A stretch of DNA of 64,000 nt from a virus (lineage: Duplodnaviria > Heunggongvirae > Uroviricota > Caudoviricetes): positions 31,091 through 95,090 of IMG/VR virus record IMGVR_UViG_3300028534_000019. One strand, 5' to 3'. The notes under the pieces were generated by a model, which saw only the letters and a list, made by a program, of their open reading frames with translations, did not search any database and was not told where the DNA came from. Positions 18,640 through 41,706 of the stretch are shown here, piece after piece; within the stretch, counting starts at the first letter, position 1, and each line of letters opens with the position of its first letter. Made by a program: the position numbers and the translations under genes.

Positions 18640-20490
18640 ATGGCAGTTATTGGTATAGATTTAGGAACGACAAATAGTGCTGTTTCAGTTTATGAAGTAG
18701 GGGAATTTAAAATTATTCCTAATGCTGAGGGTAAAAATACAACACCTAGTATTGTAGCATTTACAGATAAAGGGGATGTATTAGTAGGGGAATCAGCAAA
18801 AAGACAAGCAGTCACAAACCCTGAAAAAACTATTGAAGCAATTAAAAGAATTATGGGTATGCAATTTAATGAACCTAGATGTAAAGAGGCTCAAGAAAAA
18901 GTACAATATAAAATTGTAGATAAAAATGGTTTGGCCGCTGTTGATGTTGATGGTAAGATTTATACACCACAAGAAATTTCAGCTAAAATCCTTACAAAAC
19001 TAAAAGATGATGCAGAAGCATTTATTGGTAAAGAAGTTACAGATGCTGTAATTACAGTTCCAGCATACTTTAATGATGCTCAGAGAAAGGCGACACAAGA
19101 GGCAGGCGTTATTGCAGGGCTTAATGTACTAAGAATTATTAATGAACCTACTTCGGCCGCTCTTGCTTATGGTTTGGACAAAAAAGGTGAGGAAAATATT
19201 CTTGTTTATGATTTTGGTGGTGGTACTTTTGATGTATCTGTATTAGAAATTGGAGATGGTACTTTTGAAGTTCTTTCAACTGATGGTAATGCTTTCTTAG
19301 GTGGTAAAGACTTTGACCAAATTTTAGTTAATTATATTGCTGAATATTTTAAAGAGAAACAGGGTGTTGATTTAAGAAATGATAAAATGGCACTTCAAAG
19401 ATTATATGATGCTTCAGAAAATGCTAAAAAAGAGTTATCAAGTGTTGTAGAAACTGAAATTAACTTACCATTTATTACTATGACAGAAGCCGGCCCGCAG
19501 CATCTTGTTTTAAAAATTTCAAGAGGTAAATTTGAGGGGTTAGTACAAAATCTTGTAGATGAAACTATTGAACATATTACAACAGCATTACAAGACGCTG
19601 GTTTAAGTGTAGATGATATTAGTGAATTGATTATGGTTGGTGGCTCAACAAGAATACCTTTAGTACAAGAGGCAGTTTCAAAGTATTTTAAAGGTAAAAC
19701 TCTTAATAAATCTGTTAATCCTGATGAAGTTGTAGCCGCTGGTGCTTCAATTCAAGGTGGTGTATTAACAGGAGATGTAAAAGATGTTCTTCTTCTTGAT
19801 GTTACACCATTATCACTTGGTATTGAAACTATGGGTGGTATTGCTACTAAAATCATCCCAAAAGGTACAACTATTCCTGTTAAAAAATCAGAAATCTTTA
19901 GTACAGCAGTTGATAATCAACCAGCAGTTAGTATTGTAGTAGTACAAGGTGAAGCAAAATTAGCAGAAGATAATAAATCTTTAGGACAATTTAATCTTGA
20001 GGGTATAACACCAGCTAAAAAAGGTGTACCACAAATTGAAGTTAATTTTGATGTTGATTCTAATGGTGTTTTGAGTGTATCAGCTATTGATAAAGGAACA
20101 GGTAAAGAACAGAAAATAACAATTACAGGTTCGACAGGTTTAAGTGAAGAAGAAATTAGAAAGATGATTGATGATGCTGAAAAACAAAATCAAGAAAAGG
20201 CTGAAAAAATTAAAGCAATTGAAGCAAAAAATGAATTGGATGCTACTCTTTCAAGAATTAAAAACTTTAATGATGAAGAAAAAAATGAAGTGCTATCAGC
20301 TAAAATTTCTGATGTTGAAGAATATGTAAAAGAAGATAGAACAGCAGAAGAAATTAGAAAAATTAGAGATGAACTTGAAGAAGTTTATTTAAAAGCATTT
20401 GAAGAGAAATCAAAAAGAAATGAAGGTGCTGAGGTAAAAGAAAGCACTGAAAATAATGATGATGTTATTGATGCTGAAATTGAAGAATAA
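18640..20490 (+). CDS. dnaK: Hsp70 chaperone DnaK homolog (full NBD + SBD + lid)
   Basis: [26 protein letters not shown] and the substrate-binding domain are all canonical. Confidence 0.95.
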
Positions 20491-20501
20491 AAGAGGAAAA
20501 A

Positions 20502-21305
20502 TTGAAAAAATTATATAAAATTCTTGAAATTGAAGAAACTTCTACAACAGTAGAAATAAAAAAAGCATATAGAAAATTAGCTAAAAAATACCACCCTGAT
20601 GTTTGTAAAGAAGAGGGTGGTGAAGATAAGTTTAAAGAAATTAATAGAGCATATGAAGTTCTAAGCAATCCACAAGAAAAACAAAAGTATGATAGATTTG
20701 GTGATGAAATGTATGAAAAAATGGGGTCAGGTGGTGGAAGACCTAATCCAAATGCTGATGAGTTTGCAGAAGCAATGGCATCATTTTTCAACCAAAAGGG
20801 AAATCCCCGACAAGGTAATCCTTTTGGTATGGGTGGTAATCCTTTTATTCATACAACAATTCAAGCATATATTTCGATAGAAGATTTATTTAAAGGTACT
20901 TCTATACAATTACAAGATGGTACTAAAGTAAAAATACCACCTAGAACAATACCGGGTAGTAGGGTAAGAGTTAAAGGCAAAGGTATGTCAGATGGTAAAA
21001 ATACAGGAGATTTATTTATTATCATAACACCAAAAAATAATGATAAAGAATTTGTTGAGAATGATACTATTATAAAGATTATCAAAATTGATTTAGTTAG
21101 TATGATTTTTGGAAATGAAATAAAATATAATCATTATGGTAAAGATTTAATTGTTACTGTTCCAAAAAATACAAAGCCCGGTGACTTTGTACAAATTCCC
21201 AATCAGGGCTTAGGTACTCAGGGTTCATTAATTTTACATTTAGATTTAGAATTACCAAAAGCAGAAGATTTAGATGAAGAAAAAGTAAAAGAATTATTTA
21301 ATTAA
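20502..21305 (+). CDS. DnaJ-like J-domain co-chaperone (type II, no Zn finger), TTG start
   Basis: J-domain YKILEI...AYRKLAKKYHPDV...YEVLSNPQEKQKYD. Gly-rich linker and a DnaJ C-terminal domain. AAGAGGAAAAA RBS before the TTG. Confidence 0.85.
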   Translation: MKKLYKILEIEETSTTVEIKKAYRKLAKKYHPDVCKEEGGEDKFKEINRAYEVLSNPQEKQKYDRFGDEMYEKMGSGGGRPNPNADEFAEAMASFFNQKGNPRQGNPFGMGGNPFIHTTIQAYISIEDLFKGTSIQLQDGTKVKIPPRTIPGSRVRVKGKGMSDGKNTGDLFIIITPKNNDKEFVENDTIIKIIKIDLVSMIFGNEIKYNHYGKDLIVTVPKNTKPGDFVQIPNQGLGTQGSLILHLDLELPKAEDLDEEKVKELFN

Positions 21306-21364
21306 TATACAATTAAGGTTTCTTTTGCTATAATTTCATCATATATAAACTAAAAGGATTCAAA

Positions 21365-21769
21365 ATGGCAAAAGAAAAAAGTTATGGGGTTGCTCCTTAT
21401 TTAATTATAAATGGGCAATATTATATATTGTTAAATAAAACATCAGAACATAGTAGATACAATTTCTTCAAAGGTAAAATTGAAGAGGGTGAAACTATTG
21501 CTCAATGTGCCAAAAGAGAATTTTGGGAAGAAACAGGTGTAGAAGTTGATGAGAGAGATTTTGAAGAATATTTTTTCCAAAAGTCTTCTAAAAAAGATGT
21601 TGGTATTTTTTTAATTAATTGGTCTAAATATATTAATAAAAAATTTCAATTTCAAAAAAGAGAAATTTGGGCTTCTTATTGGGTAGAGGTTGATGATGTT
21701 CAAACATCCAAAAACCAAAAAGAAATTGTTGATTCTATTGAATCTTTTTTTAAAAATAAATCTGAGTAA
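21365..21769 (+). CDS. Nudix hydrolase
   Basis: Nudix box GKIEEGETIAQCAKREFWEETGV (GX5EX7REUXEEXGU). Confidence 0.8.
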   Translation: MAKEKSYGVAPYLIINGQYYILLNKTSEHSRYNFFKGKIEEGETIAQCAKREFWEETGVEVDERDFEEYFFQKSSKKDVGIFLINWSKYINKKFQFQKREIWASYWVEVDDVQTSKNQKEIVDSIESFFKNKSE

Positions 21770-21785
21770 AAAGTAAAGGTAAAAA

Positions 21786-22823
21786 ATGTCTAAAGAAATT
21801 GATGGATATGTAGTAAAACAAGAAACAGTTCAAGGTGTAATGAGTATTGAAGATATTGAAAAGAATTTCAATTCTTTTGTTAAAGAGATAGATTCAAATA
21901 TGGATAAAATGTCCACTGTAATACAAAATGATGAGTTAAATCAAATTAGTGATGAAATTCTTAAAGCAAAAGAATATATTGAAACATTTTCAAGAGGTGA
22001 AACAAAAAGTTTTAAAGAAAAAACACTAAGCCATTTAGGTAATGTACCGATGATTGGGGATTGGGCTAAGGGTAAGTATGAAGAAGTCAGAAGAACAAAT
22101 TTTGAAAATAGTTCTGTTAAAGAAATTATTGAGGGTATTTTTAATACTTTTGAAGAAAAGAAGAAAAGACTTATTGTTTTGAGTGAAAATATTGATTTAC
22201 TTAGAAGTAATTTACAAGTACAAGAGGCAAAACTTGAAGAGTATATTGTTCAACTTGATTATATTATTGATAATACAACTAGCTCAGGTGAAAAACTTAA
22301 AGCAATTGATATGAGTATTGTTGCTCAATCTCAAAGACAAGTGGTTAAAGAAATGTTATATAATCAAATTGATTTTATTCTTAACCTTATGGAAACTTTA
22401 ATGGTTAAAATTGTAAAAACTTTACCTGTTCTTAAAAATACATTAAATAGTTCTGTAAACATAGCGGCAACTATTAATAGTATGAAAGATACTGTTGAAA
22501 TGATGAACTCTTTAGAAGAATTGACAAATAAAGTTACACAAGAATCAACAAATAATATTCAAAGTCTTATTATTGATGTTATGGATAACTTCTCAGAAAA
22601 AATTGATGAAGAATTTTATGAAAAAGCCGCTGATAGAAATATACAGTTTACTAAAGATTTGATTGATTCAAGAAAAAAATATATTGAAAAATCTGTTAAA
22701 GGTTATAAAAATCTTAAAAGTATTGAGGTAAAAATGCAACAAGCACTTCTTGAAAGAGCAAATGCTGAAGAAGAAACATTACAAATTATGCAGTCAAGTA
22801 CAATTTCATCAGAGGCTGTGTAA
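21786..22823 (+). CDS. coiled-coil protein (possibly TelA-like; weak)
   Basis: 345 aa and long alpha-helical. The resemblance to toxic-anion-resistance TelA is an impression only. Confidence 0.35.
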   Translation: MSKEIDGYVVKQETVQGVMSIEDIEKNFNSFVKEIDSNMDKMSTVIQNDELNQISDEILKAKEYIETFSRGETKSFKEKTLSHLGNVPMIGDWAKGKYEEVRRTNFENSSVKEIIEGIFNTFEEKKKRLIVLSENIDLLRSNLQVQEAKLEEYIVQLDYIIDNTTSSGEKLKAIDMSIVAQSQRQVVKEMLYNQIDFILNLMETLMVKIVKTLPVLKNTLNSSVNIAATINSMKDTVEMMNSLEELTNKVTQESTNNIQSLIIDVMDNFSEKIDEEFYEKAADRNIQFTKDLIDSRKKYIEKSVKGYKNLKSIEVKMQQALLERANAEEETLQIMQSSTISSEAV

Positions 22824-23236
22824 TGGAAAATTCTGAATTTTATATTGAGATAAATAACACTATTTTATTTTGTCCTGATATTTTGACGGCTGAAAGAAAA
22901 TATGATGAGGTTTTATTGACTTGTAACAATGGTACTGAAATAATTTTATCAGATGCTAAATATCTTGATGAGATACTAGATAAAAAAGCAAACTTTCATA
23001 AATTACAAAATATTGTGAATGTAGATAAAACAATTTTAGATATTGAGGAAAAAGTTAAACAAAAAAGTTTAGCAAATATTCAGGAAATTGAAGATAAATT
23101 TAAAAGTTCTTTAGCTCAAACAGAATCAAAAATTGATAGTATTAGACAAACTATAAGCACTATTGACCCATCAAGAGCAGTGAGTTTGGTTGATGATATG
23201 GAAACACTTTTATCAAAATTTAAGGCTTTAATCTAA
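22823..23236 (+). CDS. hypothetical protein
   Basis: 137-aa ORF, start overlapping the previous stop. Confidence 0.45.
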   Translation: MENSEFYIEINNTILFCPDILTAERKYDEVLLTCNNGTEIILSDAKYLDEILDKKANFHKLQNIVNVDKTILDIEEKVKQKSLANIQEIEDKFKSSLAQTESKIDSIRQTISTIDPSRAVSLVDDMETLLSKFKALI

Positions 23237-23245
23237 AGGAATAAT

Positions 23246-24100
23246 ATGTTCAAAAAAGATAAAAATACCTCAACTATTTTAAAAGTTATTAAAGAGTATG
23301 ATAATATTCAGAAATTGTTTAATATAGAGTTGGATAAAGCAACATCAGAACAATTTGTGGATGAACTTAAAAAACAACTTAAATTAAATTTAGAAACTCT
23401 ATCTATCTTAACTGAAAAAACAGAGGTGTTTTCAGATACAAAAACATTTACAGGTTTTGGTTTTAGGTTGCCATATGAAGAACAAAAAATAGAGTATCTA
23501 AAATATGATAATATTTCAAGTGATGAAGAAAGTGCTTATAATATAATTGAGCATAATAAATTTATAACTTTATATAAACATAAAAAAGAATATAAAAAAA
23601 TCTTTACAAAAGAAAGTATATATTTTGAAAGTGTTTTATTAGAAATTAATAAAATATATGGTAGTATAAAAAGTGATTATTCACATAATACAGAATTAAG
23701 AGATGCTTTATTTATTATTAAAGAGTTTTCAAGAACAACACAAAAAGGTGTAGTTTATTATATTTCTTTAAGATATATAGAAAAATTTTTGATAGAAGTA
23801 TTTCCAACATTTTCAAATGTAATAAAAAAAGAATTTAAAGACTATAAAGAAAATACAAAAAATGATTTTGGGTATTGGAAAATAGAAAATTTATATAATA
23901 TTTTATTAGGATTTGAGTCTTTAATTTCATATTCAAAACAAAAAGATGAGTTTACCTTTAGACCAAGAATTAGTGTATCTATAATTTTAAAAAATGAAGA
24001 TGGTTATGTAACTAAGAAAATATTAAAAGAACTAATGAAAGAAACAAGGTATTTAGATTTTAAAATTTATCAGAAAAATAAAAAGGATAGTAATGAATAG
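23246..24100 (+). CDS. hypothetical protein
   Basis: 284-aa ORF. Confidence 0.45.
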   Translation: MFKKDKNTSTILKVIKEYDNIQKLFNIELDKATSEQFVDELKKQLKLNLETLSILTEKTEVFSDTKTFTGFGFRLPYEEQKIEYLKYDNISSDEESAYNIIEHNKFITLYKHKKEYKKIFTKESIYFESVLLEINKIYGSIKSDYSHNTELRDALFIIKEFSRTTQKGVVYYISLRYIEKFLIEVFPTFSNVIKKEFKDYKENTKNDFGYWKIENLYNILLGFESLISYSKQKDEFTFRPRISVSIILKNEDGYVTKKILKELMKETRYLDFKIYQKNKKDSNE

Positions 24101-24447: not shown

Positions 24448-25548
24448 ATGTTAGTTCAAAATAAAAAAGTTCCAAAAGAAACATTAGAGTTATTGGACTC
24501 TAAAATAGAAGAATTTGAAAAAAATACAAATTCAACTGTTTTATATATTACAATTACAGGTTCTGTTCTTTATGGTACTGATAATGAAAATAGTGATTTA
24601 GATTTTAAAGGTATTTTTATGCCTAATCTAAAAGAAGTGCTTATTGGTAATACACCTAGTGCTTTTGTTTTTAATTCAAATACAAAAGATAAAAACTCTT
24701 CTGATGATATTGATTTAACATTACACCCTGTAAATGACTTCTTTAATCATCTTAGAAAATCTGAAACAGGTGCTGTTGATTTACTTTTTAGTATGTTTAG
24801 AGAAGATACTATTGTTTTTGATGATGGTATTTTCACGAACTTTATGAAGAAAAATTATCAAAAGTTTAGAAATTCTAATATGAAAAGTTTTATCGGTTAT
24901 GCTGTTGGTCAAACTAAAAAATTTGGGATTAAAGGTGCTAGATATGAAGAGTTAGATGTTTTTTATAAAGATTGTGTTAATTATTTTAATCTTGCTCCAA
25001 AAGAAAATAAATTAGGTGAATATTGGGATTTTCTTGAACTAAAAGCCCAAGGTAAAAAATATATTAAGTTTACAAAAGCAGAAGGTGCTAGAAGAAATGA
25101 TGGTAGTAGTAATATCATTGATTATATTTCTGTTCTTGGTAAACTATATCATAAAGATGTAACAGTAGGTTATTTTTTAGAAAGAGTTTCTAAATTTTAT
25201 AATCAATTTGGTAATAGAACTAAAACAGTAGCTAAAACTGAATCAAAAACAGATTGGAAAGCAATGAGCCACGCCCTTAGAGTAGCTATGGAAGTTAAAG
25301 AGTTACTTCAATTTGGTTTTATTAAATTTCCATTGACTTATGCTGATGAGATTAAAGAAGTTAAATTTGGTAACAGAGAAGAACAAGAAACATTAGATAA
25401 AATTAGAGATGTATTGGGTGAAGTTGATACAATATTAGAAAATATTGATAAAGATAACTTTCCTTGTGAAATGAGTGAAGAATTACTTAAAAAATTAAAA
25501 TGGGAAGTAATTCTTCTATATAAAGAGTTTTTAGATTTAGGTTTTTAA
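24448..25548 (+). CDS. nucleotidyltransferase-fold protein (Pol-beta / CD-NTase-like GS...D.D motif)
   Basis: ITGSVLYGTDNENSDLDFKGIF is the [GS]x9-13 Dh[DE]h signature. A third acidic DIDLT lies downstream. 366 aa. Confidence 0.55.
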   Translation: MLVQNKKVPKETLELLDSKIEEFEKNTNSTVLYITITGSVLYGTDNENSDLDFKGIFMPNLKEVLIGNTPSAFVFNSNTKDKNSSDDIDLTLHPVNDFFNHLRKSETGAVDLLFSMFREDTIVFDDGIFTNFMKKNYQKFRNSNMKSFIGYAVGQTKKFGIKGARYEELDVFYKDCVNYFNLAPKENKLGEYWDFLELKAQGKKYIKFTKAEGARRNDGSSNIIDYISVLGKLYHKDVTVGYFLERVSKFYNQFGNRTKTVAKTESKTDWKAMSHALRVAMEVKELLQFGFIKFPLTYADEIKEVKFGNREEQETLDKIRDVLGEVDTILENIDKDNFPCEMSEELLKKLKWEVILLYKEFLDLGF

Positions 25549-26664: not shown

Positions 26665-27576
26665 ATGGAAGAACAAATAGCGATTGATTTAGGCTATTCA
26701 ACATCAAAAGTTGCTTATGCTGATAAAATAGCAAAATTCCCAACTGCTGTTTCTTTTGCTACTGATGTAGGTACATCATATGGTGAAGGGAATATTTATG
26801 ACTTTGAGGGAGATAAGTATTATGTGGGTAGTGAAGCCGCTGATGCTGAGGCTTTTACAACTATGGATTTTAAATTTTTATATAAATTTGCTCCTCTTCT
26901 TATCTATCATATTTTAAGTAAATTTGATAAAGCAGAACTTGAAAAACCTATTGTTGTAAAAACAGGATTGGCAATTGTTGATTGGCATAAAAAAGATGAT
27001 TTTATTGAAAGAATTTCAAAAATTGAAGTGAATGGGCAAACTGTTGAAACAACACCCATTCTTATTCCTCAAGGTGCTGGATGTGCTGTTGATTGGGTTT
27101 CATCAGATAATGATGGAGAATGGCCGGACAATCTTACAGTAGTTGATATTGGTTATAATACTATTAACCTTATATCATTTTTAGAGGGTAAACCAATTAG
27201 AAAAAATATGAAAAGTTACCCAGGACACGGTGTTTCTAGTATAATTAAACCTTTTACTAGTTATCTTGAAAATACTTTTGGTACAACATTTTCAGAACAA
27301 GAAGCAATTAAATTTTTTGTTAAAGGTACTTTTAAATATAATGGTGAAGACCAACCTAAAGTATCAGAAAAAATTACAGAATTAAAATCACAATTTGTTA
27401 AAAAAATGTTTCAATCTGTTTTAGTTTCTGATAAAAAACTTCTTGCTATGTCAGATGTAGTGCTTATTGCTGGTGGTGGTGCTTATTTACTTCAAGATAT
27501 TCCATTCCCGCCAAATGTTGAGTTTGTTGATTCTCCTTATGAGTTCAGTAATACTCGTGGTTATTTAATTTCATAA
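26665..27576 (+). CDS. actin-like ATPase of the ParM/StbA/Alp family
   Basis: Phosphate-1 IAIDLGYSTSKVA, phosphate-2 VVDIGYNTINL, adenosine motif LIAGGGA. 303 aa. Confidence 0.75.
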   Translation: MEEQIAIDLGYSTSKVAYADKIAKFPTAVSFATDVGTSYGEGNIYDFEGDKYYVGSEAADAEAFTTMDFKFLYKFAPLLIYHILSKFDKAELEKPIVVKTGLAIVDWHKKDDFIERISKIEVNGQTVETTPILIPQGAGCAVDWVSSDNDGEWPDNLTVVDIGYNTINLISFLEGKPIRKNMKSYPGHGVSSIIKPFTSYLENTFGTTFSEQEAIKFFVKGTFKYNGEDQPKVSEKITELKSQFVKKMFQSVLVSDKKLLAMSDVVLIAGGGAYLLQDIPFPPNVEFVDSPYEFSNTRGYLIS

Positions 27577-28442: not shown

Positions 28443-28889
28443 ATGATTTTAGATAAAATCACAAAAGAACAATTATTAGCAAGAAAGAATAGAGATACCT
28501 TTAAAACAGGTATCTTAACTACATTAATGTCAGAAGTATCTATTATAGGTAAGAATAAAGGTAATAGAAAAACAACTGATGAAGAAGCAATTGCTGTTAT
28601 AAAGAAATTTATTTCAAATGCTGAAAATAACATTGAATCTCTTCAAGGTTCTCATAATTGGGAAAATTGTACTGAAAGTATTCAAGAATTTCAAGATGAA
28701 ATAGAATTACTTCAAGGTTTTTTACCAAAACAAATGACCGAAGATGAGTTAAAAGTATCTATTGAAGTTATGGTTTCAAAAGGTGCTAACAATATTGGTG
28801 CTATTATGGGTACTCTTAAAAAAGAATATGGTGGATTATATGATGGCAAGATGGCTAGTAAACTAGCTAAAGAAGTTTTATCAAAATAA
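28443..28889 (+). CDS. GatB/YqeY-domain protein
   Basis: 148 aa. The C-terminal KGANNIGAIMGTLKKEYGGLYDGKMASKLAKEVL matches the YqeY/GatB C-terminal helical domain pattern. Confidence 0.6.
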   Translation: MILDKITKEQLLARKNRDTFKTGILTTLMSEVSIIGKNKGNRKTTDEEAIAVIKKFISNAENNIESLQGSHNWENCTESIQEFQDEIELLQGFLPKQMTEDELKVSIEVMVSKGANNIGAIMGTLKKEYGGLYDGKMASKLAKEVLSK

Positions 28890-30909: not shown

Positions 30910-31217
30910 TGTCAAAGCAATGGCTTAGTGAATTAATAGAACAGCCATATGAATGGTGTATTGAAACTGTTACAAAAGAGCCTGAATTACTAAAAAATAT
31001 AAAAGTACAAACACAAGAACTTTGTGAAATAGCATTTTATGAAGATTATAAAACAGCAAAATATATACATCAAGAATTTAGATTTAATGAGAGAATTTTA
31101 GCTATTGCTCGACAGCATAGTTTATTAAATAAAAGCATACCACAAGATATGCTTGAAAAAATAAATGAATATCCATATAATTACTTTGAAAAGAAATATC
31201 CTGAAATCTTTTTCTAA
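30909..31217 (+). CDS. hypothetical protein ending ...EKKYPEIFF
   Basis: 102-aa ORF. Member of the YPE-tail set. Confidence 0.45.
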   Translation: MSKQWLSELIEQPYEWCIETVTKEPELLKNIKVQTQELCEIAFYEDYKTAKYIHQEFRFNERILAIARQHSLLNKSIPQDMLEKINEYPYNYFEKKYPEIFF

Positions 31218-31567: not shown

Positions 31568-32455
31568 ATGGATAAAGGTTTATTTGGAATTATTGGAGCA
31601 GGTGTATTAGTAGTTATGCTATTAATTTTAGGTGCTACATCAGTTTATACAGTTGATGAGGGTAAAGTTGGTATTGTAAAGACTTGGGGTAAAGCAGTAA
31701 AGCAAGTTAATCCCGGACTTCACTTCAAAATGCCTATTGCTGATGAGGTTGTAGAGATTGAGGTAAGAACAAGAAAAAATGTTGAAACTATGAGTATTGC
31801 TACAAGTGAGCAAATGGCGGCAAAAGCAACTGTTTCTATGAACTGGACTGTTAATAAAGCAAGTGTTTTAGAACTCTATAAGAAATATGGCTCACTTGAC
31901 CAATTTGAAAGTAGAATTTTAGACCCAAAACTTAGAGATGCCACAAAAGAGGGTATTGCTAAATTTACAGCAGAACAAAATATTAAGAACAGAGGTGTAA
32001 GCACACTCAAAGTTAAGGAATTATTTATTAACCAAATTAAAGGTTATCCTATTACTGTTAATGGTTTTCAAATTGAAGATATTCAATTAAGTAAAAAATA
32101 TCTTGCTTCAATTGATGCTAAACAAACAGCTAAAAATGAAAGAGATGCTGAAAAATTTAAACTTGAAAAACAAGCCCTTGAAGCACAAAGAGCAGTAAAT
32201 ACAGCAAATGCTGAAAGAGATGCCGCTAAAGCAAGAGCAGATGGTGTGGCTTATAAAATTGAAGCAGAAGCAAAAGCAAATGCTAAGAAAATTGCCCTTA
32301 TTGCTGGAGCAGAAGCAAAAGCAATTAAACAAAAAGCACAAGCACTTAAAAATAACCCTGCTATTATAGACTATATGAGAGCAGAAAAATGGAGTGGGAA
32401 TTATCCTACTACTATGATGGGTAGCAACCCAAACATTCTTATGAAATTAAAATAA
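31568..32455 (+). CDS. SPFH / Band 7 (stomatin-prohibitin-HflK family) membrane protein
   Basis: N-terminal TM helix, then YTVDEGKVGIVKTWGK...PGLHF (SPFH core). C-terminal Ala/Lys-rich coiled coil. Confidence 0.8.
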   Translation: MDKGLFGIIGAGVLVVMLLILGATSVYTVDEGKVGIVKTWGKAVKQVNPGLHFKMPIADEVVEIEVRTRKNVETMSIATSEQMAAKATVSMNWTVNKASVLELYKKYGSLDQFESRILDPKLRDATKEGIAKFTAEQNIKNRGVSTLKVKELFINQIKGYPITVNGFQIEDIQLSKKYLASIDAKQTAKNERDAEKFKLEKQALEAQRAVNTANAERDAAKARADGVAYKIEAEAKANAKKIALIAGAEAKAIKQKAQALKNNPAIIDYMRAEKWSGNYPTTMMGSNPNILMKLK

Positions 32456-33464: not shown

Positions 33465-34577
33465 ATGAAAATTACAGAGATTAAACCTATTTTACAGTTT
33501 TCTAAAGATGCTGATGATGCTGTAATCATTGAGGGTAAACACGGTATTGGTAAATCAGAAATAGTTAAACAATATTGTTCGGAAAATGGTTATTTTTATA
33601 CTGTTTTATTTTTAAGTCATCAAGAAGTTGGTGATTTGATTGGTATGCCTTTTGAAAAAAATGGTATTCAATATTGGTCTAAACCATCTTGGTTAGTAAG
33701 AATGGAAGAAGCATCAGCAAGAGGGGAACATAATGTTTTACTCTTAGATGAGTTAAACCGAGCCCAAACTGATGTATTACAAAGTGCTTTACAACTTGTT
33801 TTAGAAAGACAAATTCACGAGCATTTCTTACCTACTACTGATGGTGTAAGAAGTCAAGTAATTGCTTGTATTAACCCTGATGATGATTTATATCAAGTAA
33901 TTACACTTGACCCAGCACTAAAAGATAGATTTTTACATTTAAAAACAAGTGAAGATTTACAAGGATGGGTTAAATGGGGTGGTGAAAAAGGAGTACCTGA
34001 TGTTGTTATTCATTACTTGCTTGAAAATGAAAATGATTTTCATAGTACAAATGAAGATGGTGAGGGTGCTACACCAAGAAGTTGGTATAAATTAAGTCAA
34101 TTCTTGAAAATATTTGAAGATAAAGAAGTTGAAGAATTTCAACTTTGGGAGATTATTAAAGGTAAAGTAGGTTCAAGTATCGGTAGCAAATTCCTTAACT
34201 TTTATAATACTCATAGTACATTTATTGATGTTACAAAAATTAAAAAGTTTTTAAATAAATATAAAAGAGATATTTCTGATTTACCTGAAATTGGTGCTGA
34301 ATTAGCTAGTTATATTAAAGGTCTTGAACAAGTAACTAAAGTAGAACAAGTTAATAAACTATATCACGACAGTATTGAAAAAATTAAAGATACTAAAGTT
34401 ACTATGGATGATGAAGATATTTTCACTATTTTTGCTATGCTTCACGCTTTTGAAATAGAAGTAACAACATCAGTTATGAAGCAATGGAAAAATGAAAGTG
34501 TGAGTGATTTTATGGATTTTGTTAAAAAAGATAATAAAGAACTCATTACATTAATAACAAGAAGATTAAAAACATAA
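33465..34577 (+). CDS. MoxR/CobS-like AAA+ ATPase (AAA_5)
   Basis: Walker A GKHGIGKSE, Walker B/sensor LLLDELNRA. 370 aa. Confidence 0.75.
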   Translation: MKITEIKPILQFSKDADDAVIIEGKHGIGKSEIVKQYCSENGYFYTVLFLSHQEVGDLIGMPFEKNGIQYWSKPSWLVRMEEASARGEHNVLLLDELNRAQTDVLQSALQLVLERQIHEHFLPTTDGVRSQVIACINPDDDLYQVITLDPALKDRFLHLKTSEDLQGWVKWGGEKGVPDVVIHYLLENENDFHSTNEDGEGATPRSWYKLSQFLKIFEDKEVEEFQLWEIIKGKVGSSIGSKFLNFYNTHSTFIDVTKIKKFLNKYKRDISDLPEIGAELASYIKGLEQVTKVEQVNKLYHDSIEKIKDTKVTMDDEDIFTIFAMLHAFEIEVTTSVMKQWKNESVSDFMDFVKKDNKELITLITRRLKT

Positions 34578-35219: not shown

Positions 35220-36473
35220 ATGGCTAAGAGTAATTTAAGAAGTGAAATTATTGAGGAAACTGTTATAAATGCCTTTTCAAATAAGAGAGATGGTTTTGTA
35301 AATGAGTATGCTTTTTATTTTCATATGTTTGCTATGTGTAATATAATTGAAACAGAAGATGTAGAGTTAGCAGGTGTTAATTTTATTAAAAAATGGAATT
35401 TATATATAAATCCTAAAGAGTTTCAAAAATATTCACTTAATCAAAGACTTGGTATAATTAAGCACGAAATGCTTCACATAATTTTTAACCATTTAGTAAG
35501 AATGGAAAACAAAGAAAAAGAAGAATGGAATTTAGCTACTGATTGTGCTATTAATCAAATGATTAGAAGTGCTGATTTACCTAAAGAAAGAGTAGATACA
35601 AAAAGTCTAAGTGAATATTTGGGTGTTGATGTACCTACTAATCAAAGTGCTGATTATTATTATGATTTAATTATGAAAAATAAAAAACAACAAAATAAAT
35701 GTGGTGGCAGTTCATCAGGTGGTTGTCCACAACAAGGTGATGGTAGTGGTTCTGATGAAAGTGATGGTTTAGGTACATTAGATGACCATAATAAATGGGA
35801 AGAGTCGGAAAGTATGGATGGTATAGAAGAACTTATTGAATCTTCTGTTAAAGATATGGTTTCAAAAGCCCAAGACAAAAACAGAGGTCTAACACCACAA
35901 GAACTTAATGAAATTATTGAGATTATTTTTGGTAAATCTGTTGTTAATTGGAAAAGTGTTTTAAGAAATATTGTTTCTAATAGAAGAGTTAATAAAAGAT
36001 ATACAATTCAAAAAAGGAATAGAAGATTCCCAAAAAGAATAGAAATTAGAGGTACAACAAAAGAGAAAAAATTTGATATTGTTGTTATACTTGATATTTC
36101 AGGTAGTATGAATGATAGTGAAATTCAAGATGGTTTAAATGAAATTAAAGCAATTGCTAAATTAACAAAATCTAGTATTAAGATAATTCAAGTCGATACA
36201 ACTGTTAAAGAAGTTCAAGAGTTTACAGCAAAGACAAAAACATTTAATAGACTTGGTTGTGGTGGTACAATGATGTATCCAGCACTTCAATATATAAAAG
36301 ATAACAAAATAGATATGGATTGTGGCATTTTGATTTCAGATATGATGATTGAAAGTTTAGATACTTGGGAACAAAAAGGTTTAGCACCAAAATGTAAATT
36401 TATCTTTTTGAATACTAGTAACCACTCACTAAAAACAACAACAAGAAAAAACTATATGTTTTTTGATTTATAA
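35220..36473 (+). CDS. VWA-domain protein with N-terminal HExxH metallopeptidase-like domain (CobT/DUF2201-like partner of MoxR ATPase)
   Basis: KHEMLHIIFNH (HExxH). Gly/Ser-rich linker. VWA MIDAS VVILDISGSMND...GGT. Confidence 0.7.
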   Translation: MAKSNLRSEIIEETVINAFSNKRDGFVNEYAFYFHMFAMCNIIETEDVELAGVNFIKKWNLYINPKEFQKYSLNQRLGIIKHEMLHIIFNHLVRMENKEKEEWNLATDCAINQMIRSADLPKERVDTKSLSEYLGVDVPTNQSADYYYDLIMKNKKQQNKCGGSSSGGCPQQGDGSGSDESDGLGTLDDHNKWEESESMDGIEELIESSVKDMVSKAQDKNRGLTPQELNEIIEIIFGKSVVNWKSVLRNIVSNRRVNKRYTIQKRNRRFPKRIEIRGTTKEKKFDIVVILDISGSMNDSEIQDGLNEIKAIAKLTKSSIKIIQVDTTVKEVQEFTAKTKTFNRLGCGGTMMYPALQYIKDNKIDMDCGILISDMMIESLDTWEQKGLAPKCKFIFLNTSNHSLKTTTRKNYMFFDL

Positions 36474-36485: not shown

Positions 36486-36833
36486 ATGGAATATTTATAT
36501 ATAATTTTAATTGGTTATGCTTTTAATTTTGCTGTTGAAATTATTTGGACAATACTTACAATTATTGTAACCACTGGTTCTATAATACAAGACCCAAAGA
36601 GTATGTTAGAACTTAAAAAATTAGAATCTTTAACAGCTAGATATAAATTGTTAAATAAAGATATACCCTTTAGTAAAAAAAGCACTGAGAAAATAGCTTC
36701 GGCTTTTCCTTTTGCTTCAATAGTTGGTATGATTCTATTAACATATAAAATTAAACAAAATAATGGTTTAGTTGGTTATATTGAGAGTGAAAATAAAAGA
36801 TTTGAAGAAATAATAAAAGAGCAAAAAGGTTAA
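36486..36833 (+). CDS. small membrane protein
   Basis: 115 aa with two hydrophobic segments. Confidence 0.45.
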   Translation: MEYLYIILIGYAFNFAVEIIWTILTIIVTTGSIIQDPKSMLELKKLESLTARYKLLNKDIPFSKKSTEKIASAFPFASIVGMILLTYKIKQNNGLVGYIESENKRFEEIIKEQKG

Positions 36834-36901
36834 ATTTTTTAAGTTTCATTTAAGTCTAATATGTTATAATTTTACATATCAAAAGACAAAAAGGATTTAA
36901 A

Positions 36902-37321
36902 ATGATTTTAATCATAGATACATTATTTACAGAAAGTGTTGCTTTAACAGTTATTCAAGAAAAAGAGAATGAAAAAAGAGTTAAAGAAGTTAATTATAAA
37001 GATGTTAAAAAAGAAATTGAAAATAACACTTTTAATATTTGTAATTTAAAAGATGATGTTATAAGATTTATTAAAATAAATGATGTTCCTGCTGATGTTT
37101 TTGAAAGTTTTAAAGAGTATTTAAGAGGTTGTTTATTTGAATTAACAGTTAAAAACCTTAAAAAAGGTTTTGAAGATACTTTGAAAATACAAGAAGTTAC
37201 TAAATCAATTAATGATTTAGATATTAAAATTTCTATTGCTGATAATGTTTTTGAATTAGGACAATTATCAATAGCATTAGATTATTATAAAAATGAATTA
37301 GATAAAATAAAAGGGTTATAA
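36902..37321 (+). CDS. hypothetical protein
   Basis: 139-aa ORF behind the second copy of the 66-nt promoter cassette. Confidence 0.45.
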   Translation: MILIIDTLFTESVALTVIQEKENEKRVKEVNYKDVKKEIENNTFNICNLKDDVIRFIKINDVPADVFESFKEYLRGCLFELTVKNLKKGFEDTLKIQEVTKSINDLDIKISIADNVFELGQLSIALDYYKNELDKIKGL

Positions 37322-38004
37322 TGGATAATATATTATTAAGAGATTTAGTTAATGAGATTGATGAAAATACTAAGGTTATTTCAGATACTCATTTTTCTCA
37401 TAAAAATATCCTAAATTTTGAGCCTTGTAGATTAACACAAATGAGAATTGATGGTTATGATGCAGATGAACACGACAAATGGCTCATAGATAAATGGAAT
37501 GAGAATGTAGGTAAAGATGAACTTGTTATACATTTAGGTGATTTTGCTTTTAAAAGAGTAGCTGAATGTTTAGAAGAATTAAATGGTAGAATTATTTTAA
37601 TTCTTGGAAACCACGATGGAAATTCAAAAAATACAAAATATAATAAGGCTACTGTTGTAGATGGTTCTTATATGTTTCTAAAGTCTTATACAGATGATAC
37701 AATATTATGTAAAATTGTTGATGAAGATGAGAAAAATAGTTCTTTGATAATTGAAATTGGTGGTAAGACTGTTATGTTTTGTCATTATGCTTTATTTAAT
37801 AAAAATGGTGAATGGGATTATAAAAATCCAAAGATAGCACCAAGAATTAAATATCTTGAGAGTATTTATTCTATGTTAGATTGTGATGTAAATGTACACG
37901 GTCATCTACATAGTTCTATTAGTACTTTTGATAAAAGTATAAACTGTTCTCTTGAACATATTGAGTTTAAACCAACAAAAATAAAAGATTTAAAAGGGTG
38001 GTAA
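37321..38004 (+). CDS. calcineurin-like metallophosphoesterase
   Basis: MPP motifs ISDTHFSH, HLGDF, ILGNHDG, GHLH. Confidence 0.75.
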   Translation: MDNILLRDLVNEIDENTKVISDTHFSHKNILNFEPCRLTQMRIDGYDADEHDKWLIDKWNENVGKDELVIHLGDFAFKRVAECLEELNGRIILILGNHDGNSKNTKYNKATVVDGSYMFLKSYTDDTILCKIVDEDEKNSSLIIEIGGKTVMFCHYALFNKNGEWDYKNPKIAPRIKYLESIYSMLDCDVNVHGHLHSSISTFDKSINCSLEHIEFKPTKIKDLKGW

Positions 38005-38172
38005 ATGGTAGTAAATGATTTAAGAGTTATGCTAAGTACAGCATTAGAAATTATTGGTGATAGAAATGCTTTACCATCAGATAAAGATAAAATTATTCTA
38101 TTGATGAAGAGTGAAGCAACAACACATAATCTTGAAGAAATAGAAAAGATTTGTGAAAAATATAAAGGATAG
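38005..38172 (+). CDS. possible small ORF (~55 aa) not in the ORF track
   Basis: ATG at 38005 overlapping the previous stop. Open to a TAG at about 38170. Fills the gap before the CCA-enzyme gene. Confidence 0.3.
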   Translation: MVVNDLRVMLSTALEIIGDRNALPSDKDKIILLMKSEATTHNLEEIEKICEKYKG

Positions 38173-38174
38173 TA

Positions 38175-39122
38175 ATGTTTGTTGTTAGAAAATTGCTTGA
38201 AGAAGCAAATGATAATTATTTTAAAAGACTTAATGATAATGAAATATCTAAAAATGATATAGAAATTTATGAAACTATTTTCCCTATTAGAAAATTAGAT
38301 GCTAGAAAATTAGATGATTTTGTTTCTAAAACTAACATTGATAATCTATTAATTAAAATTTCAAAACTAGATAATTCTTATATTAAAACTTTACTTAATG
38401 ATGTAATACTGATATTATCTAATGAAAAACCAAACTCAAGTCTAGCAGAAAATCTAAATCTTGTAAAAATGAGAATTGAAATAGATTTAGATGATGATGT
38501 TAAAAATTTTATATATGCTGAGGATATTATAGAAGTTTTAAAAACATTACCTAAAAGAACATTTATTGTAGGTGGTTTTGTTAGAGATTCAATAGCTAAT
38601 AGAAGTGCTAATGATATGGATTTTTGTACTGAAAATAGCTATGAAGATGTAAAAAAAGTTTTTGAAAAAAATAAAAACTTCTCTATTAAAGAAACAGGTA
38701 AACATTTTTCTGTTTTGATTGTTACAGATAAAAATAATCTTGAATCTTTTGAAATTGCTCAATTAAGAAAAGACAAAGATAATGGTGGTGCTGAAATAGG
38801 AACTATTATAGATGATGCTGAAAGAAGAGATTTTATGAATAGTGCTATTTACTTTGATATTAATTCTAAAGTATTAATTGACCCTCACGGTCAATCAATA
38901 GATGATAGTGTCAGAAATGTAATTAGATTTATTGGCAAACCTGAGGATAGAATAAAAGAAGACCCTCTAAGGGTTCTAAGATTTTATAGATTTATGGGTA
39001 GAGGTTGGGTAGCTGATTCAAAATCATTAAAAGCAGTGAGAACTAATTTTAGTTTAATGATGAATGAAACATCTCATAATAGAGTTATGAGTGAAATTGA
39101 AAAAATGGTAATGGGAGCATAA
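38175..39122 (+). CDS. cca: tRNA nucleotidyltransferase (CCA-adding enzyme, class II head domain)
   Basis: FIVGGFVRDSI (GGxVRD), NDMDFC (DxD), DAERRDFMNSAIYFD (RRD motif), EDPLRVLRFYRF (EDxxR). Confidence 0.8.
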   Translation: MFVVRKLLEEANDNYFKRLNDNEISKNDIEIYETIFPIRKLDARKLDDFVSKTNIDNLLIKISKLDNSYIKTLLNDVILILSNEKPNSSLAENLNLVKMRIEIDLDDDVKNFIYAEDIIEVLKTLPKRTFIVGGFVRDSIANRSANDMDFCTENSYEDVKKVFEKNKNFSIKETGKHFSVLIVTDKNNLESFEIAQLRKDKDNGGAEIGTIIDDAERRDFMNSAIYFDINSKVLIDPHGQSIDDSVRNVIRFIGKPEDRIKEDPLRVLRFYRFMGRGWVADSKSLKAVRTNFSLMMNETSHNRVMSEIEKMVMGA

Positions 39123-39353
39123 ATGAATTGTACAGTTTTATATAAAGACAAAGATTATGATATAACAGTGAAAGGTTTTAAAAACATTACAGAAGCAGAG
39201 GATTTTATTCAAGATAAAACTGAAGATGATGAATGTTATGAACCGAGAATAATGGTTGATTATCCAATCATTCAACAACAAGAAGAAACAATAAAACTAT
39301 TAAGAAGTTTACTTGAATCTTTTGCTAATGATTTTAAAGTAAAAAGATTATAA
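39123..39353 (+). CDS. hypothetical small protein
   Basis: 76-aa ORF. Confidence 0.4.
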   Translation: MNCTVLYKDKDYDITVKGFKNITEAEDFIQDKTEDDECYEPRIMVDYPIIQQQEETIKLLRSLLESFANDFKVKRL

Positions 39354-39451
39354 ATATCTTTGATATTTTATAAAAAATTAAGTAAAGTTAGAGTATAATT
39401 ACACATACAAAAAGGATATGTTGTTTTAATTATAAAAACTTTACTTACTAT

Positions 39452-39772
39452 GGGGATGATATGGTTTCGACTGGAAGTCATAGCACTAATGATACCTTTT
39501 AAAATTAAACGCAAACAACACAGATTACACTGGTAACACAGTGCTTTCAGCATAGTCTAAGGACTTGACTGAGGGGTTTTTAAGTTTTACCTTGCAACAG
39601 AAAAACTTATCCTTTTCGTTTTATATGGTTGTATGTCCTTAACATACATTAAAGTTTGTAATCTTTTCAAAATTACACATAAAAGTTAATAGTTCTTGGT
39701 TCTTTTAAAAACTAGAACATATCATTAGTGTGGATTTTTAGGACTCGGGTTCAATTCCCGACATCTCCACCA
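39452..39772 (+). ncRNA. ssrA: tmRNA (ssrA), about 321 nt
   Basis: 5' GGGGAUG pairs with 3' CAUCUCC-ACCA, giving an acceptor stem with a G3:U wobble (Ala identity). 3' tRNA-like GGACUCGGGUUCAAUUCCCGA T-arm. Encoded CCA. Internal tag ORF GCA AAC AAC ACA GAT TAC ACT GGT AAC ACA GTG CTT TCA GCA TAG gives ANNTDYTGNTVLSA-stop. Coordinates are +/-1 to 2. Confidence 0.85.
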
Positions 39773-39843
39773 ATCAAAAAATATTTTTAAAGTTTATAAT
39801 AAATAGATTTTTAAAATATTTTTAAAAATATAAAAGGATTATA

Positions 39844-41706
39844 ATGAGTCAAGATATTGTTTTAGGTATTGATTTAGGTACAACAATGAGTGTAATATCA
39901 TATTACGACCCCCACGAAAAAGCAGTCAAACTTATTAAAGATAAAGAACAAAAAGTTTTATTTCCATCAGTTGTTGCTTTGGTTGATGGTAAATGGGAAG
40001 TTGGTGAAAGGGCTTTAGAACAATATGAAGTAACTCCTGAATTAACAATAAGAAATATTAAAAGACTTATGGGAACACCATTTTATTCTGATGGATGTAA
40101 ACAAGCAAAAAATATAATCAGTTCAAAAGTTGTTAATATGGATGGTATGGCAGGTGTTGAGTTGATGGGTAAACAATATTCACCTGAAGAAATTTCCTCA
40201 ATCATTCTTAGTTTTTTAAAAGATACAGCAGAAAAACATTTTGAAAGATTGAAATTAGATTATAATATTAGTGGTGTTGTTATAACAGTTCCAGCATACT
40301 TCAATCATAACCAAAGAACAGCCACAAGGCGTGCTGGAGAGGTAGCTGGACTAAATGTATTAAGGATAGTTAATGAGCCGACAGCGGCTTCTCTTGCTTA
40401 TGGTTTACAAAATAAAGAAGATGGTAAAATAGTAGCAGTTGATTTAGGTGGTGGTACATTTGATGTATCAGTAATTGATATTTCTGATAGTACATATAAA
40501 GTTCTAAGTACAAATGGTAACTCTTATTTTGGTGGAGAAGACCTAAATAATAAAATTTTTAAAAATTTAGTAGATTTTATAAAGGCTAATATTGGAATAG
40601 ATATTACACTAAGTGATAGGTCACAAGCAATATTAAATGAAGAAATAGAGAGAGTAAAACAAGAACTTTCTTTTAATAAATCTTCTTACCTAAATGCTAA
40701 TGATATTTTTGAAAAAGACCCTTATAATTTTTCAGCTAAGATTACAAGAGAAGAATTAGAAGAAATTCTTGATTTTGGAGAAGTTAAAAAACACATAATT
40801 AAGGCTATTGAAGATGCTGATGTAAAATATGAAGAAATACAAGATGTTGTTTTAGTTGGTGGTTCAACAAGAATACCTATGTTGAAAAAAATAGTTTCTA
40901 AATTATTTGATGGTAGAGAACTTTATGATAAATTAAACCCTGATGAGGTAGTTTCAATAGGTGCTTCTATTCAGGGTGCTATTATTTCAGGTTATATTGA
41001 TGATATTTTGTTAATTGATGTTGCTTCTTTATCTTTGGGTATAAAATTAGATGACGAAACATTTTTACCAATTATTAAAAAAGGAACAGTATTACCAGCA
41101 GAATTTAATGATAATGTTACAACTTCTGAGAATGACCAAAAATTCTTAGTTTTTAATATAGCCCAAGGTGAAGCAGAAAAATTTAGTGATAATATTTTCT
41201 TAGGTAACTTTATTTTTGAGGGTTTTGATACCGGACCGGCAGGTTATCCAAACATAACTGTAACAATAAAACAAAATTTAGATGGTATTATAGAAGTATT
41301 AGTTAAAGATGAAAATTCTAAAGCAAAAGAAACTTATCTCATTGAGGGTGAATATAATATTTCACAAAGTAGAATACAAGAATTAACAGCTAAAAATGAA
41401 GAAAGTAATGAAGAAAACAAAGAAGAAAATGAAAGAAAAAGATGTTTATCGAGAATAAAATATAAATTGTTTGAAATTGAAAGATATGCTGAAAAATTTG
41501 ATTCTGAGAGAATGAGAGAATTATATAAAAATGGTTTGGATGCCATAAAAGAAGATAAACTAAAAGCAAGTGATTTATCAGTTATAGAAAATTATCTATC
41601 AAGTAGATATTTTAGTGTTATGGCTTCACACCAAAAAGAAATAGAAAACAAATTAGAAGAAAATGCTAGAAATTATGCTAAAAAACTTAGAAAAAAGGAA
41701 AAATAA
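39844..41706 (+). CDS. second, divergent Hsp70-family chaperone
   Basis: [25 protein letters not shown] motifs. 620 aa. SBD-like C-terminal half. Confidence 0.9.
   Translation: MSQDIVLGIDLGTTMSVISYYDPHEKAVKLIKDKEQKVLFPSVVALVDGKWEVGERALEQYEVTPELTIRNIKRLMGTPFYSDGCKQAKNIISSKVVNMDGMAGVELMGKQYSPEEISSIILSFLKDTAEKHFERLKLDYNISGVVITVPAYFNHNQRTATRRAGEVAGLNVLRIVNEPTAASLAYGLQNKEDGKIVAVDLGGGTFDVSVIDISDSTYKVLSTNGNSYFGGEDLNNKIFKNLVDFIKANIGIDITLSDRSQAILNEEIERVKQELSFNKSSYLNANDIFEKDPYNFSAKITREELEEILDFGEVKKHIIKAIEDADVKYEEIQDVVLVGGSTRIPMLKKIVSKLFDGRELYDKLNPDEVVSIGASIQGAIISGYIDDILLIDVASLSLGIKLDDETFLPIIKKGTVLPAEFNDNVTTSENDQKFLVFNIAQGEAEKFSDNIFLGNFIFEGFDTGPAGYPNITVTIKQNLDGIIEVLVKDENSKAKETYLIEGEYNISQSRIQELTAKNEESNEENKEENERKRCLSRIKYKLFEIERYAEKFDSERMRELYKNGLDAIKEDKLKASDLSVIENYLSSRYFSVMASHQKEIENKLEENARNYAKKLRKKEK

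Follow-up and report, generated by a model that had tools for sequence, protein, structure and literature searches.

A canonical DnaK system and a divergent orphan Hsp70 encoded by one Campylobacterota phage

The 64-kb stretch of DNA analysed here (the window; IMG/VR record IMGVR_UViG_3300028534_000019, positions 31,091 to 95,090) belongs to an AT-rich T4-like myovirus whose host is a Campylobacterota of vent or sediment, and it encodes two Hsp70 proteins. Hsp70-1 (18640–20490, plus strand) is a canonical DnaK of 616 amino acids and is followed by a J-domain co-chaperone of class B, or type II (20502–21305, plus strand). Hsp70-2 (39844–41706, plus strand) is an orphan, divergent DnaK-type Hsp70 of 620 amino acids. 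We consider it probable that the phage thereby carries two functionally different Hsp70 machines, a generalist DnaK system and a specialised Hsp70-2. An initial annotation made from the sequence letters had placed the three open reading frames (ORFs) at these same coordinates, and the dedicated, non-canonical role that it had offered as one explanation is favoured for Hsp70-2 by the residue audit described below. It had also called the two proteins paralogs; two Hsp70s are indeed present, but their common origin by duplication is not established, the two sharing 40% identity over 514 amino acids.

Identity and residues of Hsp70-2

Hsp70-2 has the full architecture of an Hsp70, with a nucleotide-binding domain (NBD), linker, β-subdomain of the substrate-binding domain (SBDβ) and lid, and matches PF00012 with 471.6 bits over residues 6–562. 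It scores below every NCBIfam cut-off (467.6 bits against 648 for NF001413, 449 against 822.55 for TIGR02350 and 386.3 against 708.55 for TIGR01991, the HscA model). Among 5.8 billion proteins its sole close match is itself, followed by DnaKs of Nautiliales and other Campylobacterota at 38–44% identity. When the C-terminal half (substrate-binding domain, SBD, and lid) was compared with 1.84 billion representatives, again only the protein itself was retrieved below 1e-30, the remainder being generic SBDs at 24–36% identity. IMG/VR holds at least 592 Hsp70-encoding stretches, the best 80 of which reach no more than 38% identity to Hsp70-2. The look-up gave no exact-product match because the contig in ENA carries a different allele of the gene.

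The phylogeny proposed in the initial annotation was computed by neighbour joining (NJ). In this tree Hsp70-2 forms a long branch at the base of the DnaKs, on the DnaK side and apart from HscA and HscC, whereas Hsp70-1 is sister to Sulfurimonas DnaK. Assignment of Hsp70-2 to HscA was rejected, as the protein lacks the N-terminal extension of about 17 amino acids, has Ser rather than the Phe of E. coli HscA at arch position 429, and has 2 amino acids deleted from the GrpE-signature loop, against 10 in E. coli HscA. Assignment to HscC was rejected as well: the region 76–101 of DnaK, deleted in HscC, is present, the length is 620 amino acids against 550–580, and the NBD is 34% identical to that of HscC. 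Since Hsp70-2 shares two Campylobacterota-type DnaK indels, its ancestor would have been a Campylobacterota DnaK or the phage's own DnaK. Signature columns, counted to tell the phage clade from a bacterial DnaK as the source, gave 1:0 against all Campylobacterota and 6:0 against Sulfurimonas alone, but there are too few clean columns and the 6:0 count may reflect ancestral states. Hsp70-2 may have arisen either by duplication within the phage, which is plausible, or by a second capture.

Residues were audited in the numbering of E. coli DnaK, with roles taken from PMC8215388. All 14 ATPase core residues are kept in Hsp70-2 (D8, G10, T11, T12, K70, P143, R151, E171, D194, G196–198, T199 and D201); N13, a neighbour of this core, is replaced by Met. 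The J-contact residues R167, N170, T173, Q378 and P419 are also kept, together with the hydrophobic linker ILLID. The cleft and GrpE contacts are altered (K55L, R56E, V59E, L257R and G32Q), and the GrpE-signature loop has a 2-amino-acid deletion and a changed sequence. Both salt bridges of the cleft (K55–E267 and R56–E264) are lost through K55L and R56E. In HscA, the absence of both bridges results in a 700-fold faster release of ADP (PMC8215388). The arch is altered by M404D and by A429S, at a residue highly conserved in prokaryotic DnaKs (PMC8215388), and the substrate pocket by F426V, V436L and I438F. D477K reverses the partner of the J-domain residue K48, and D148H replaces a signalling residue that HscA and HscC, too, have retained. 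Judged by arch, cleft salt bridges and GrpE loop, Hsp70-2 does not qualify as a DnaK.

Hsp70-2 would then be a fast-evolved specialist that still hydrolyses ATP and couples its domains. Without the salt bridges and the GrpE-contact loops it may release ADP unaided, as HscA and HscC do. Because these two proteins lack the same salt bridges and GrpE contacts, we infer by analogy that Hsp70-2 is a GrpE-independent Hsp70 of narrow specificity. The replaced arch and pocket would confer a narrow, non-DnaK client set, for which the product of the next gene, ORF152, is a candidate.

The distribution of the changes is uneven. Thirty other DnaKs share 142 invariant alignment columns in the NBD and 35 in the SBDβ, of which Hsp70-2 conserves 105 and 18, respectively. 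The losses cluster at the GrpE loops and cleft surfaces, at the substrate loops L1,2 and L3,4, and at the J/NBD docking face. The SBDβ is more diverged than the NBD (31–34% against 39–45% identity), which is the opposite of the situation in Hsp70-1. As read from the sequence, the divergence is one of targeted remodelling and not of uniform decay. The AlphaFold2 model of Hsp70-2 (pLDDT, predicted local distance difference test, 82.1; pTM, predicted template modelling score, 0.75) contains a complete NBD, an eight-stranded SBDβ and a simplified three-helix lid. Its best fold match is the ATP-state DnaK structure 4B9Q (template modelling score 0.76–0.79). The modelled lid is helical to the C-terminus, whereas DnaK ends in a disordered acidic tail.

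A decaying duplicate, relaxed in constraint, devoid of a specific function and heading for loss, would also produce a very long branch, leave no orthologue to be found in the searches and tolerate a variable C-terminus, and D148H affects a residue conserved in all reference Hsp70s. However, a 620-codon frame would not persist by chance in DNA of 26% G+C (probability about 1e-24, a base-composition estimate), and the ATPase core and NBD columns counted above are kept at about 40% identity. The predicted fold is confident, and the gene has a good Shine-Dalgarno sequence and an apparent translational coupling to the gene that follows. The two known alleles have the same length and encode the same residues 1–566; neither is disrupted, which rules out a pseudogene. 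We regard decay as very unlikely. Recent host-derived pseudogenes, which the initial annotation had named as the finding that would overturn its view, are not what we observe for either Hsp70: the ORFs are intact in the independent ENA and Logan assemblies, and the G+C content at third codon positions (GC3; 0.107 for Hsp70-1 and 0.114 for Hsp70-2) matches that of the structural genes. Pseudogenes and recent captures are thereby excluded for both.

Hsp70-1, its J-protein and the module in related phages

Hsp70-1 matches PF00012 with 766.8 bits and passes both DnaK equivalog cut-offs of NCBIfam (870.9 against 648 for NF001413 and 846.8 against 822.55 for TIGR02350), which bears out its initial description as a canonical DnaK. 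The cleft and GrpE positions are conserved (K55, R56, V59, E267 and the G32 loop), D264 being a conservative change. The arch (M404, A429), the pocket (F426, V436, I438), D477 and the acidic C-terminal motif are all kept. Hsp70-1 and Sulfurimonas DnaK have the same GrpE-signature loop, and among bacterial proteins the DnaKs of Sulfurimonas are the closest, at about 68% identity. Hsp70-1 and thirteen metagenomic proteins (69–74% identity) form one clade, sister to Sulfurimonas DnaK in the NJ tree (bootstrap 100), and wherever context is available the members of this clade sit on phage-like contigs. By sequence and tree position, Hsp70-1 derives from a Campylobacterota DnaK within this old, phage-borne clade, and its ancestor would have been captured from a Sulfurimonas-like host. 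Its GC3 equals that of the structural genes, which argues for a long residence in the phage. Over Hsp70-1 and the adjacent J gene, the window and the ENA assembly differ by 1 nt.

Two side observations concern this clade. The contigs L001 and L002 (JGI 3300026521; ENA ERZ27262639 k141_55163), of 65–153 kb and 21% G+C, carry a DnaK that falls in the phage clade; they encode capsule-synthesis and export genes, Hsp20–DnaK–GrpE, ClpP and many ORFans, and are either phages or cells with small genomes. In L023 (IMGVR_UViG_3300026512_000571) the dnaK orthologue is interrupted after DGNAFLGG by about 1.3 kb (5226–6530) containing a 272-amino-acid GIY-YIG-like ORF, with flanks that match a group I intron below threshold (RF00028, 35.7 and 27.3 bits). 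The insert is probably a mobile group I intron with a GIY-YIG-like endonuclease. Group I introns bearing endonucleases are a typical mark of T4-like phage genes.

The J-protein of 267 amino acids carries a PF00226 J-domain (85.8 bits) and a PF01556 DnaJ_C domain (61.7 bits). It has a YHPD motif and a Gly/Phe-rich stretch at about residues 75–115, and no CXXCXGXG zinc-finger motif. A J-domain with HPD, a Gly/Phe linker and DnaJ_C in the absence of a zinc finger make this a class B protein as defined in PMC8215388. It is not an orthologue of DnaJ or CbpA, its scores being 156.3 against 377.2 for TIGR02349 and 97.1 against 403 for NF007618 (CbpA). The tight linkage and the TTG start noted in the initial annotation are both confirmed: the TTG lies 11 nt past the DnaK stop and 5 nt after the Shine-Dalgarno sequence AAGAGGA. 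The TTG aligns with the ATG starts of orthologous J-proteins, and the first internal Met is residue 70, past the J-domain; the TTG is therefore the real start. The protein retains the equivalent of K48, the J-domain partner of DnaK D477. Because D477 is reversed to Lys in Hsp70-2, the J-protein does not appear matched to that protein, and it is probably tuned to, and paired with, Hsp70-1 or the host DnaK.

In related contigs the chaperone genes recur in a fixed order, (NADAR)–Hsp20–DnaK–GrpE–DnaJ in L004, L016 and L023, and DnaK–GrpE–DnaJ in L010. L004, from a hydrothermal-vent metagenome, shares its terminase TerL (47% identity) and a ClpP-like protease (36%) with the phage; L023 shares a NADAR protein and the ClpP-like protease. 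The order in the window is NADAR–DnaK–DnaJ, with spacers of 70 nt and 11 nt. The NADAR-domain gene (18057–18569, plus strand; Pfam NADAR, 154.5 bits) marks the upstream edge of the ancestral module and is 52% identical to the NADAR that precedes Hsp20–DnaK–GrpE–DnaJ in L023. The J-protein of the window shares 35–38% identity with its counterparts downstream of GrpE in L004, L010, L016 and L023. No GrpE or Hsp20 was detected by tblastn or hidden Markov model (HMM) searches of the window, 9.4 kb upstream of it and 1.5 kb downstream, in agreement with the initial remark that no GrpE is evident nearby. A second J-domain was likewise not detected in the approximately 76 kb of the phage that were searched.

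The simplest reading of this comparison is that Hsp20 and GrpE have been lost from the module of this phage, presumably by deletion. Hsp70-1 keeps the features of GrpE dependence, down to the signature loop shared with Sulfurimonas, and therefore probably relies on GrpE of the host. Hsp70-1 and the class B J-protein would thus constitute a generalist DnaK system, inherited in a lineage of large Campylobacterota phages, in which a DnaK of the slow-exchange type recycles with the GrpE of the host. CIRCE and HAIR heat-shock operators are absent, and the system may supply chaperone capacity that is independent of the HrcA/HspR-repressed heat-shock genes of the host.

Genomic setting and polymorphic tail of Hsp70-2

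Transcription signals were compared with the positions of the genes. The T4 late-promoter consensus TATAAATA occurs 13 times on the plus strand, and nine of these copies stand just upstream of genes (9312, 10383, 11716, 14575, 42924, 42946, 47940, 49655 and 53948), against a baseline of 19% (p=1.3e-4). The distance to the gene start is 24–38 nt for eight of them and 49 nt for the ninth, and the genes concerned include neck, tail and tape-measure genes. This suggests that the phage uses T4-style late transcription. The consensus is not found directly upstream of either Hsp70 gene. One copy (39349) lies 103 nt before the gene for a transfer-messenger RNA (tmRNA), itself upstream of Hsp70-2. In scans for sigma-70 promoters and terminators, sites were no commoner than in shuffled sequence, so that such predictions carry little information in this AT-rich DNA.

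These positions bear on the idea that the two Hsp70s provide redundant dosage, both being generalist folders of large virion proteins and Hsp70-2 a drifted second copy. The phage does encode structural proteins of 1419 and 1252 amino acids, Hsp70-2 has a complete Hsp70 fold and catalytic set, and no terminator is predicted between the late-type motif before the tmRNA and Hsp70-2. However, the arch, the pocket floor and D477, invariant in generalist DnaKs (PMC8215388), are replaced in Hsp70-2, whose SBDβ has diverged beyond its NBD in a manner opposite to Hsp70-1. Neither gene belongs to the structural modules, and cultured T4-like Campylobacter phages with similar virions are absent among the Hsp70 matches. 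Redundant dosage is accordingly improbable. The folding demand of the tape measure or baseplate proteins, put forward in the initial annotation to explain the pair, finds no link in the genome: the Hsp70 genes precede the tape-measure gene by 29 kb and 8 kb, without the late motif directly before them, among genes for translation rescue, RNA repair and nucleotide metabolism.

The tmRNA gene (39452–39772, plus strand) was identified by ARAGORN and by Rfam (RF00023, 90.8 bits against a cut-off of 47) and encodes the tag ANNTDYTGNTVLSA. Hsp70-2 starts 71 nt downstream of it, with no predicted terminator between the two, so that the initial placement of a second, divergent Hsp70 right after a tmRNA is correct, and the tmRNA is genuine. 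With SmpB, encoded 22 kb away (16602–17051, Pfam 132 bits), the tmRNA makes a complete trans-translation pair.

ORF152 (41706–42164, plus strand) follows Hsp70-2 with a TAATG overlap between its start and the stop of Hsp70-2; because of this overlap the two are probably translated together. ORF152 is an ORFan whose only database match is itself, with no match in Pfam, NCBIfam, PHROG, PADLOC or the PDB, and its AlphaFold2 model is of low confidence (pLDDT 47.8). It occupies the position after an Hsp70 that GrpE holds in the related phages. A divergent GrpE was nevertheless rejected, since ORF152 gave no match to PF01025 or NCBIfam, and tblastn with three phage GrpEs and the GrpE HMM came up blank here. 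On the strength of its gene position, ORF152 is a candidate for a dedicated partner or client of Hsp70-2.

The neighbourhood could also be seen as a quality-control module of tmRNA, Hsp70-2 and ORF152, in which Hsp70-2 handles tmRNA-tagged products or those of stalled ribosomes. The short spacing to the tmRNA, the phage-encoded SmpB and a CCA-adding enzyme just upstream are consistent with this scheme. Against it, adjacency is the sole evidence, and the searches made here retrieved the arrangement in no other genome. A visual likeness of ORF152 to SspB has no counterpart in BLASTP (E=1.7 against E. coli SspB), in Pfam or PDB sequence matches, or in a fold search, which returned nothing at E<=0.001 from a weak model. 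A role in trans-translation is the most improbable of the explanations weighed.

The same phage is present in three independent assemblies: the 100.9-kb JGI contig, ENA ERZ27262685 and Logan SRR8439170. Over 13.6 kb, the window and the ENA assembly differ at 37 nt, of which 31 fall in 41451–41701 (plus strand), a cassette encoding the C-terminus of Hsp70-2, and 6 in the other 13.3 kb. The flanks of the cassette are identical. The Hsp70-2 gene as a whole shows 32 nt differences between alleles of equal length. The proteins are identical over residues 1–566 and differ at 17 positions in 567–620, and the codon changes over the whole gene are 17 nonsynonymous and 8 synonymous. The charge of the tail flips, from …AKKLRKKEK to …ARKTKEEEQ, and the start of ORF152 downstream is identical. 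The Logan contig runs to 41519, at the onset of the variation, and the ENA contig to 41785. Two assemblies made independently end at the variable patch or shortly beyond it, which suggests co-existing alleles of co-occurring strains.

The ratio of nonsynonymous to synonymous rates (dN/dS) between the two alleles is about 0.6, as a rough estimate. The patch reflects either diversifying selection or a recombination tract, and two alleles cannot decide between them. No further alleles of the tail were found in metagenome and viral contig collections, which do not contain this contig. Mutagenesis by a diversity-generating retroelement was set aside because on inspection the changes are not adenine-specific; no reverse transcriptase was matched among that part of the window ORFs which was scanned.

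This variation raises the question of conflict with the host. Rather than folding phage proteins, Hsp70-2, possibly with ORF152, might take over or target a protein of the host, such as a regulator, or a defence sensor that uses DnaK/DnaJ, with the variable tail tracking a variable host partner. The concentration of nonsynonymous changes and the charge flip in the last 54 residues, the other 566 being identical, are of the kind expected here, and Hsp70-2 and ORF152 are both lineage-specific orphans. Such orphans are common among conflict genes. According to PMC12619734, bNACHT25 senses phage through the DnaJ of the host, and chaperones encoded by phages may act as counter-defences. On the other side, there is no match to PADLOC or other defence systems, the estimated dN/dS is not above 1, and with two alleles only, the patch could be a neutral recombination tract, smaller patches being present elsewhere. 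This explanation is unlikely in our view, though it is the most interesting of the alternatives, all of which rank below the reading of two functionally different machines. A bolder variant, which we entertain as a doubtful possibility, is that Hsp70-2 and ORF152 form a self-contained pair independent of an exchange factor, with the tail under diversifying selection and engaging a variable host target. Such a pair would follow a logic like that of HscA–IscU, but invented inside a phage, and Hsp70-2 would then be the first case of a phage Hsp70 turned from folding to conflict.

Several points weigh against the proposal of a generalist and a specialised machine. The GrpE independence of Hsp70-2 is deduced from its likeness to HscA and HscC. 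Hsp70-2 still has E264 and E267, and other residues might re-form a bridge. D148H could leave the interdomain signal impaired rather than retuned. Two alleles cannot directly measure purifying selection on the divergent SBD, and the gene overlap is all that ties ORF152 to Hsp70-2. Finally, of the 100.9 kb of the source contig, 27 kb or more lies outside the search for GrpE, Hsp20 and J-domains, and could hold a GrpE or a second J-protein.

Comparison with known systems and the auxiliary gene block

Phage-encoded chaperones have been described before, and the statement of the initial annotation that phages normally borrow host DnaK/DnaJ overstates the rarity of the phage-encoded genes. Besides the IMG/VR stretches counted above, there is a phage Hsp70 family, PHROG 22485, and the moraphages, large aquatic phages of Bacteroidota, encode host-derived DnaK, J-proteins and sometimes Hsp20 (PMC12619734). 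As in the phage studied here, the moraphage DnaKs form a clade nested in the DnaK tree of the host phylum, and one of them is divergent with a long branch (PMC12619734). The present phage differs in its Campylobacterota host, in its T4-like lineage and in combining a canonical DnaK with an orphan Hsp70 in one genome. Its relatives carry GrpE, which is mentioned nowhere in the text of PMC12619734.

With E. coli HscA and HscC, Hsp70-2 shares the loss of the cleft salt bridges, GrpE contacts and D477, and an altered arch and pocket (PMC8215388). Such losses are the pattern of a GrpE-independent, narrow-specificity Hsp70 with its own J-partner (PMC8215388). No HscB- or DjlC-like partner was found. 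Rki, a J-domain protein of the T4-like phage RB43, acts on host DnaK and stabilises sigma-32 (PMC3486835). The J-protein described here likewise comes from a T4-like phage and would act on DnaK, as far as can be judged from the genes. Unlike Rki, it is a full class B protein with client-binding C-terminal domains, it adjoins a phage DnaK, and its position is conserved in related phages.

Two DnaK-type proteins per genome are also found in Myxococcus xanthus, where DnaK1 and DnaK2 have largely non-overlapping clients and the functional divergence is carried by the NBD and SBDβ, not by the lid (PMC11019930). The phage differs in having a genome of at least 100 kb instead of a complex cellular proteome, and a second copy that is far more divergent (40% identity). 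The Hsp70 homologue of closteroviruses is a viral Hsp70 that has been repurposed for a non-chaperone, virion-related role. Closteroviruses and giant viruses differ from the phage in having eukaryotic hosts and Hsp70s of independent origin. Imitervirales giant viruses sometimes hold two different Hsp70 copies (PMC12978162), and the same 2026 survey of viral Hsp70s reported no convincing Caudoviricetes Hsp70 in reference databases.

Phage DnaK, DnaJ and Hsp20 (PMC12619734), a functional phage J-protein (PMC3486835) and Hsp70-bearing contigs in IMG/VR are thus already known. The collections and literature searched contain no precedent for a canonical DnaK and an orphan, remodelled Hsp70 in a single phage, for the Hsp20–DnaK–GrpE–DnaJ module of Campylobacterota phages and its reduction here, or for a polymorphic Hsp70-2 tail. 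Phage-borne Hsp70 systems are barely characterised, and this genome offers a natural comparison between a canonical DnaK, whose own GrpE and Hsp20 have apparently been given up, and a rewritten Hsp70-2. Should the predictions hold, the pair would show the speed at which a virus can convert a generalist Hsp70 into a specialist, and Hsp70-2 would be a compact Hsp70 that needs no GrpE and lends itself to mechanistic studies. The lineage with the Hsp20–DnaK–GrpE–DnaJ module also bears on how phages sustain protein folding in hosts with repressor-controlled heat-shock genes.

The window has a G+C content of 26% and is 92% coding, with 79 of its 87 ORFs on one strand. Its assignment to a phage, as in the initial annotation, is secured by TerL, a ClpP-like prohead protease, a T4 neck protein, gp32, a gp5-like spike, gp6-like and gp25-like baseplate proteins and the 1419-amino-acid tape measure, together with a gp23-type capsid gene located just upstream of the window. 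Among cultured phages, the terminase is closest to those of the Vibrio phiKT1024 group (41%) and of CP220 and CPt10, T4-like phages of Campylobacter (38–39%), and no near-identical DNA was found in GenBank phages.

Both Hsp70 genes lie outside the virion genes, within a long auxiliary-gene block that encodes SmpB, NADAR, Nudix, RlaP, an actin-like ALP protein, YqeY, ThyX, a MoxR ATPase with a metallopeptidase-VWA partner, a CCA-adding-type nucleotidyltransferase, the tmRNA, MazG and dCMP deaminase. Genes for RNA or tRNA repair and nucleotide signals encircle the chaperone genes; in addition to NADAR these are Nudix (21365–21769), RlaP (24448–25548), YqeY (28443–28889) and the CCA-adding or poly(A)-polymerase-type enzyme (38175–39122). 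This gene set hints at a broader module sustaining translation. The MoxR-type AAA+ ATPase (33465–34577) and the metallopeptidase-VWA protein (35220–36473) correspond to a chaperone/co-chaperone pair described in jumbo phages (PMC7824862), and represent a third chaperone-like system of this phage. The actin-like ALP protein (ALP_N and MreB-like_C domains) is encoded at 26665–27576, and a Band_7/SPFH protein at 31568–32455. In the replication module, a SIR2-domain ORF (4884–5633), annotated in the identical ENA contig (L011, 14244–14993), is followed by a DUF488-like ORF, and both may be conflict-related genes.

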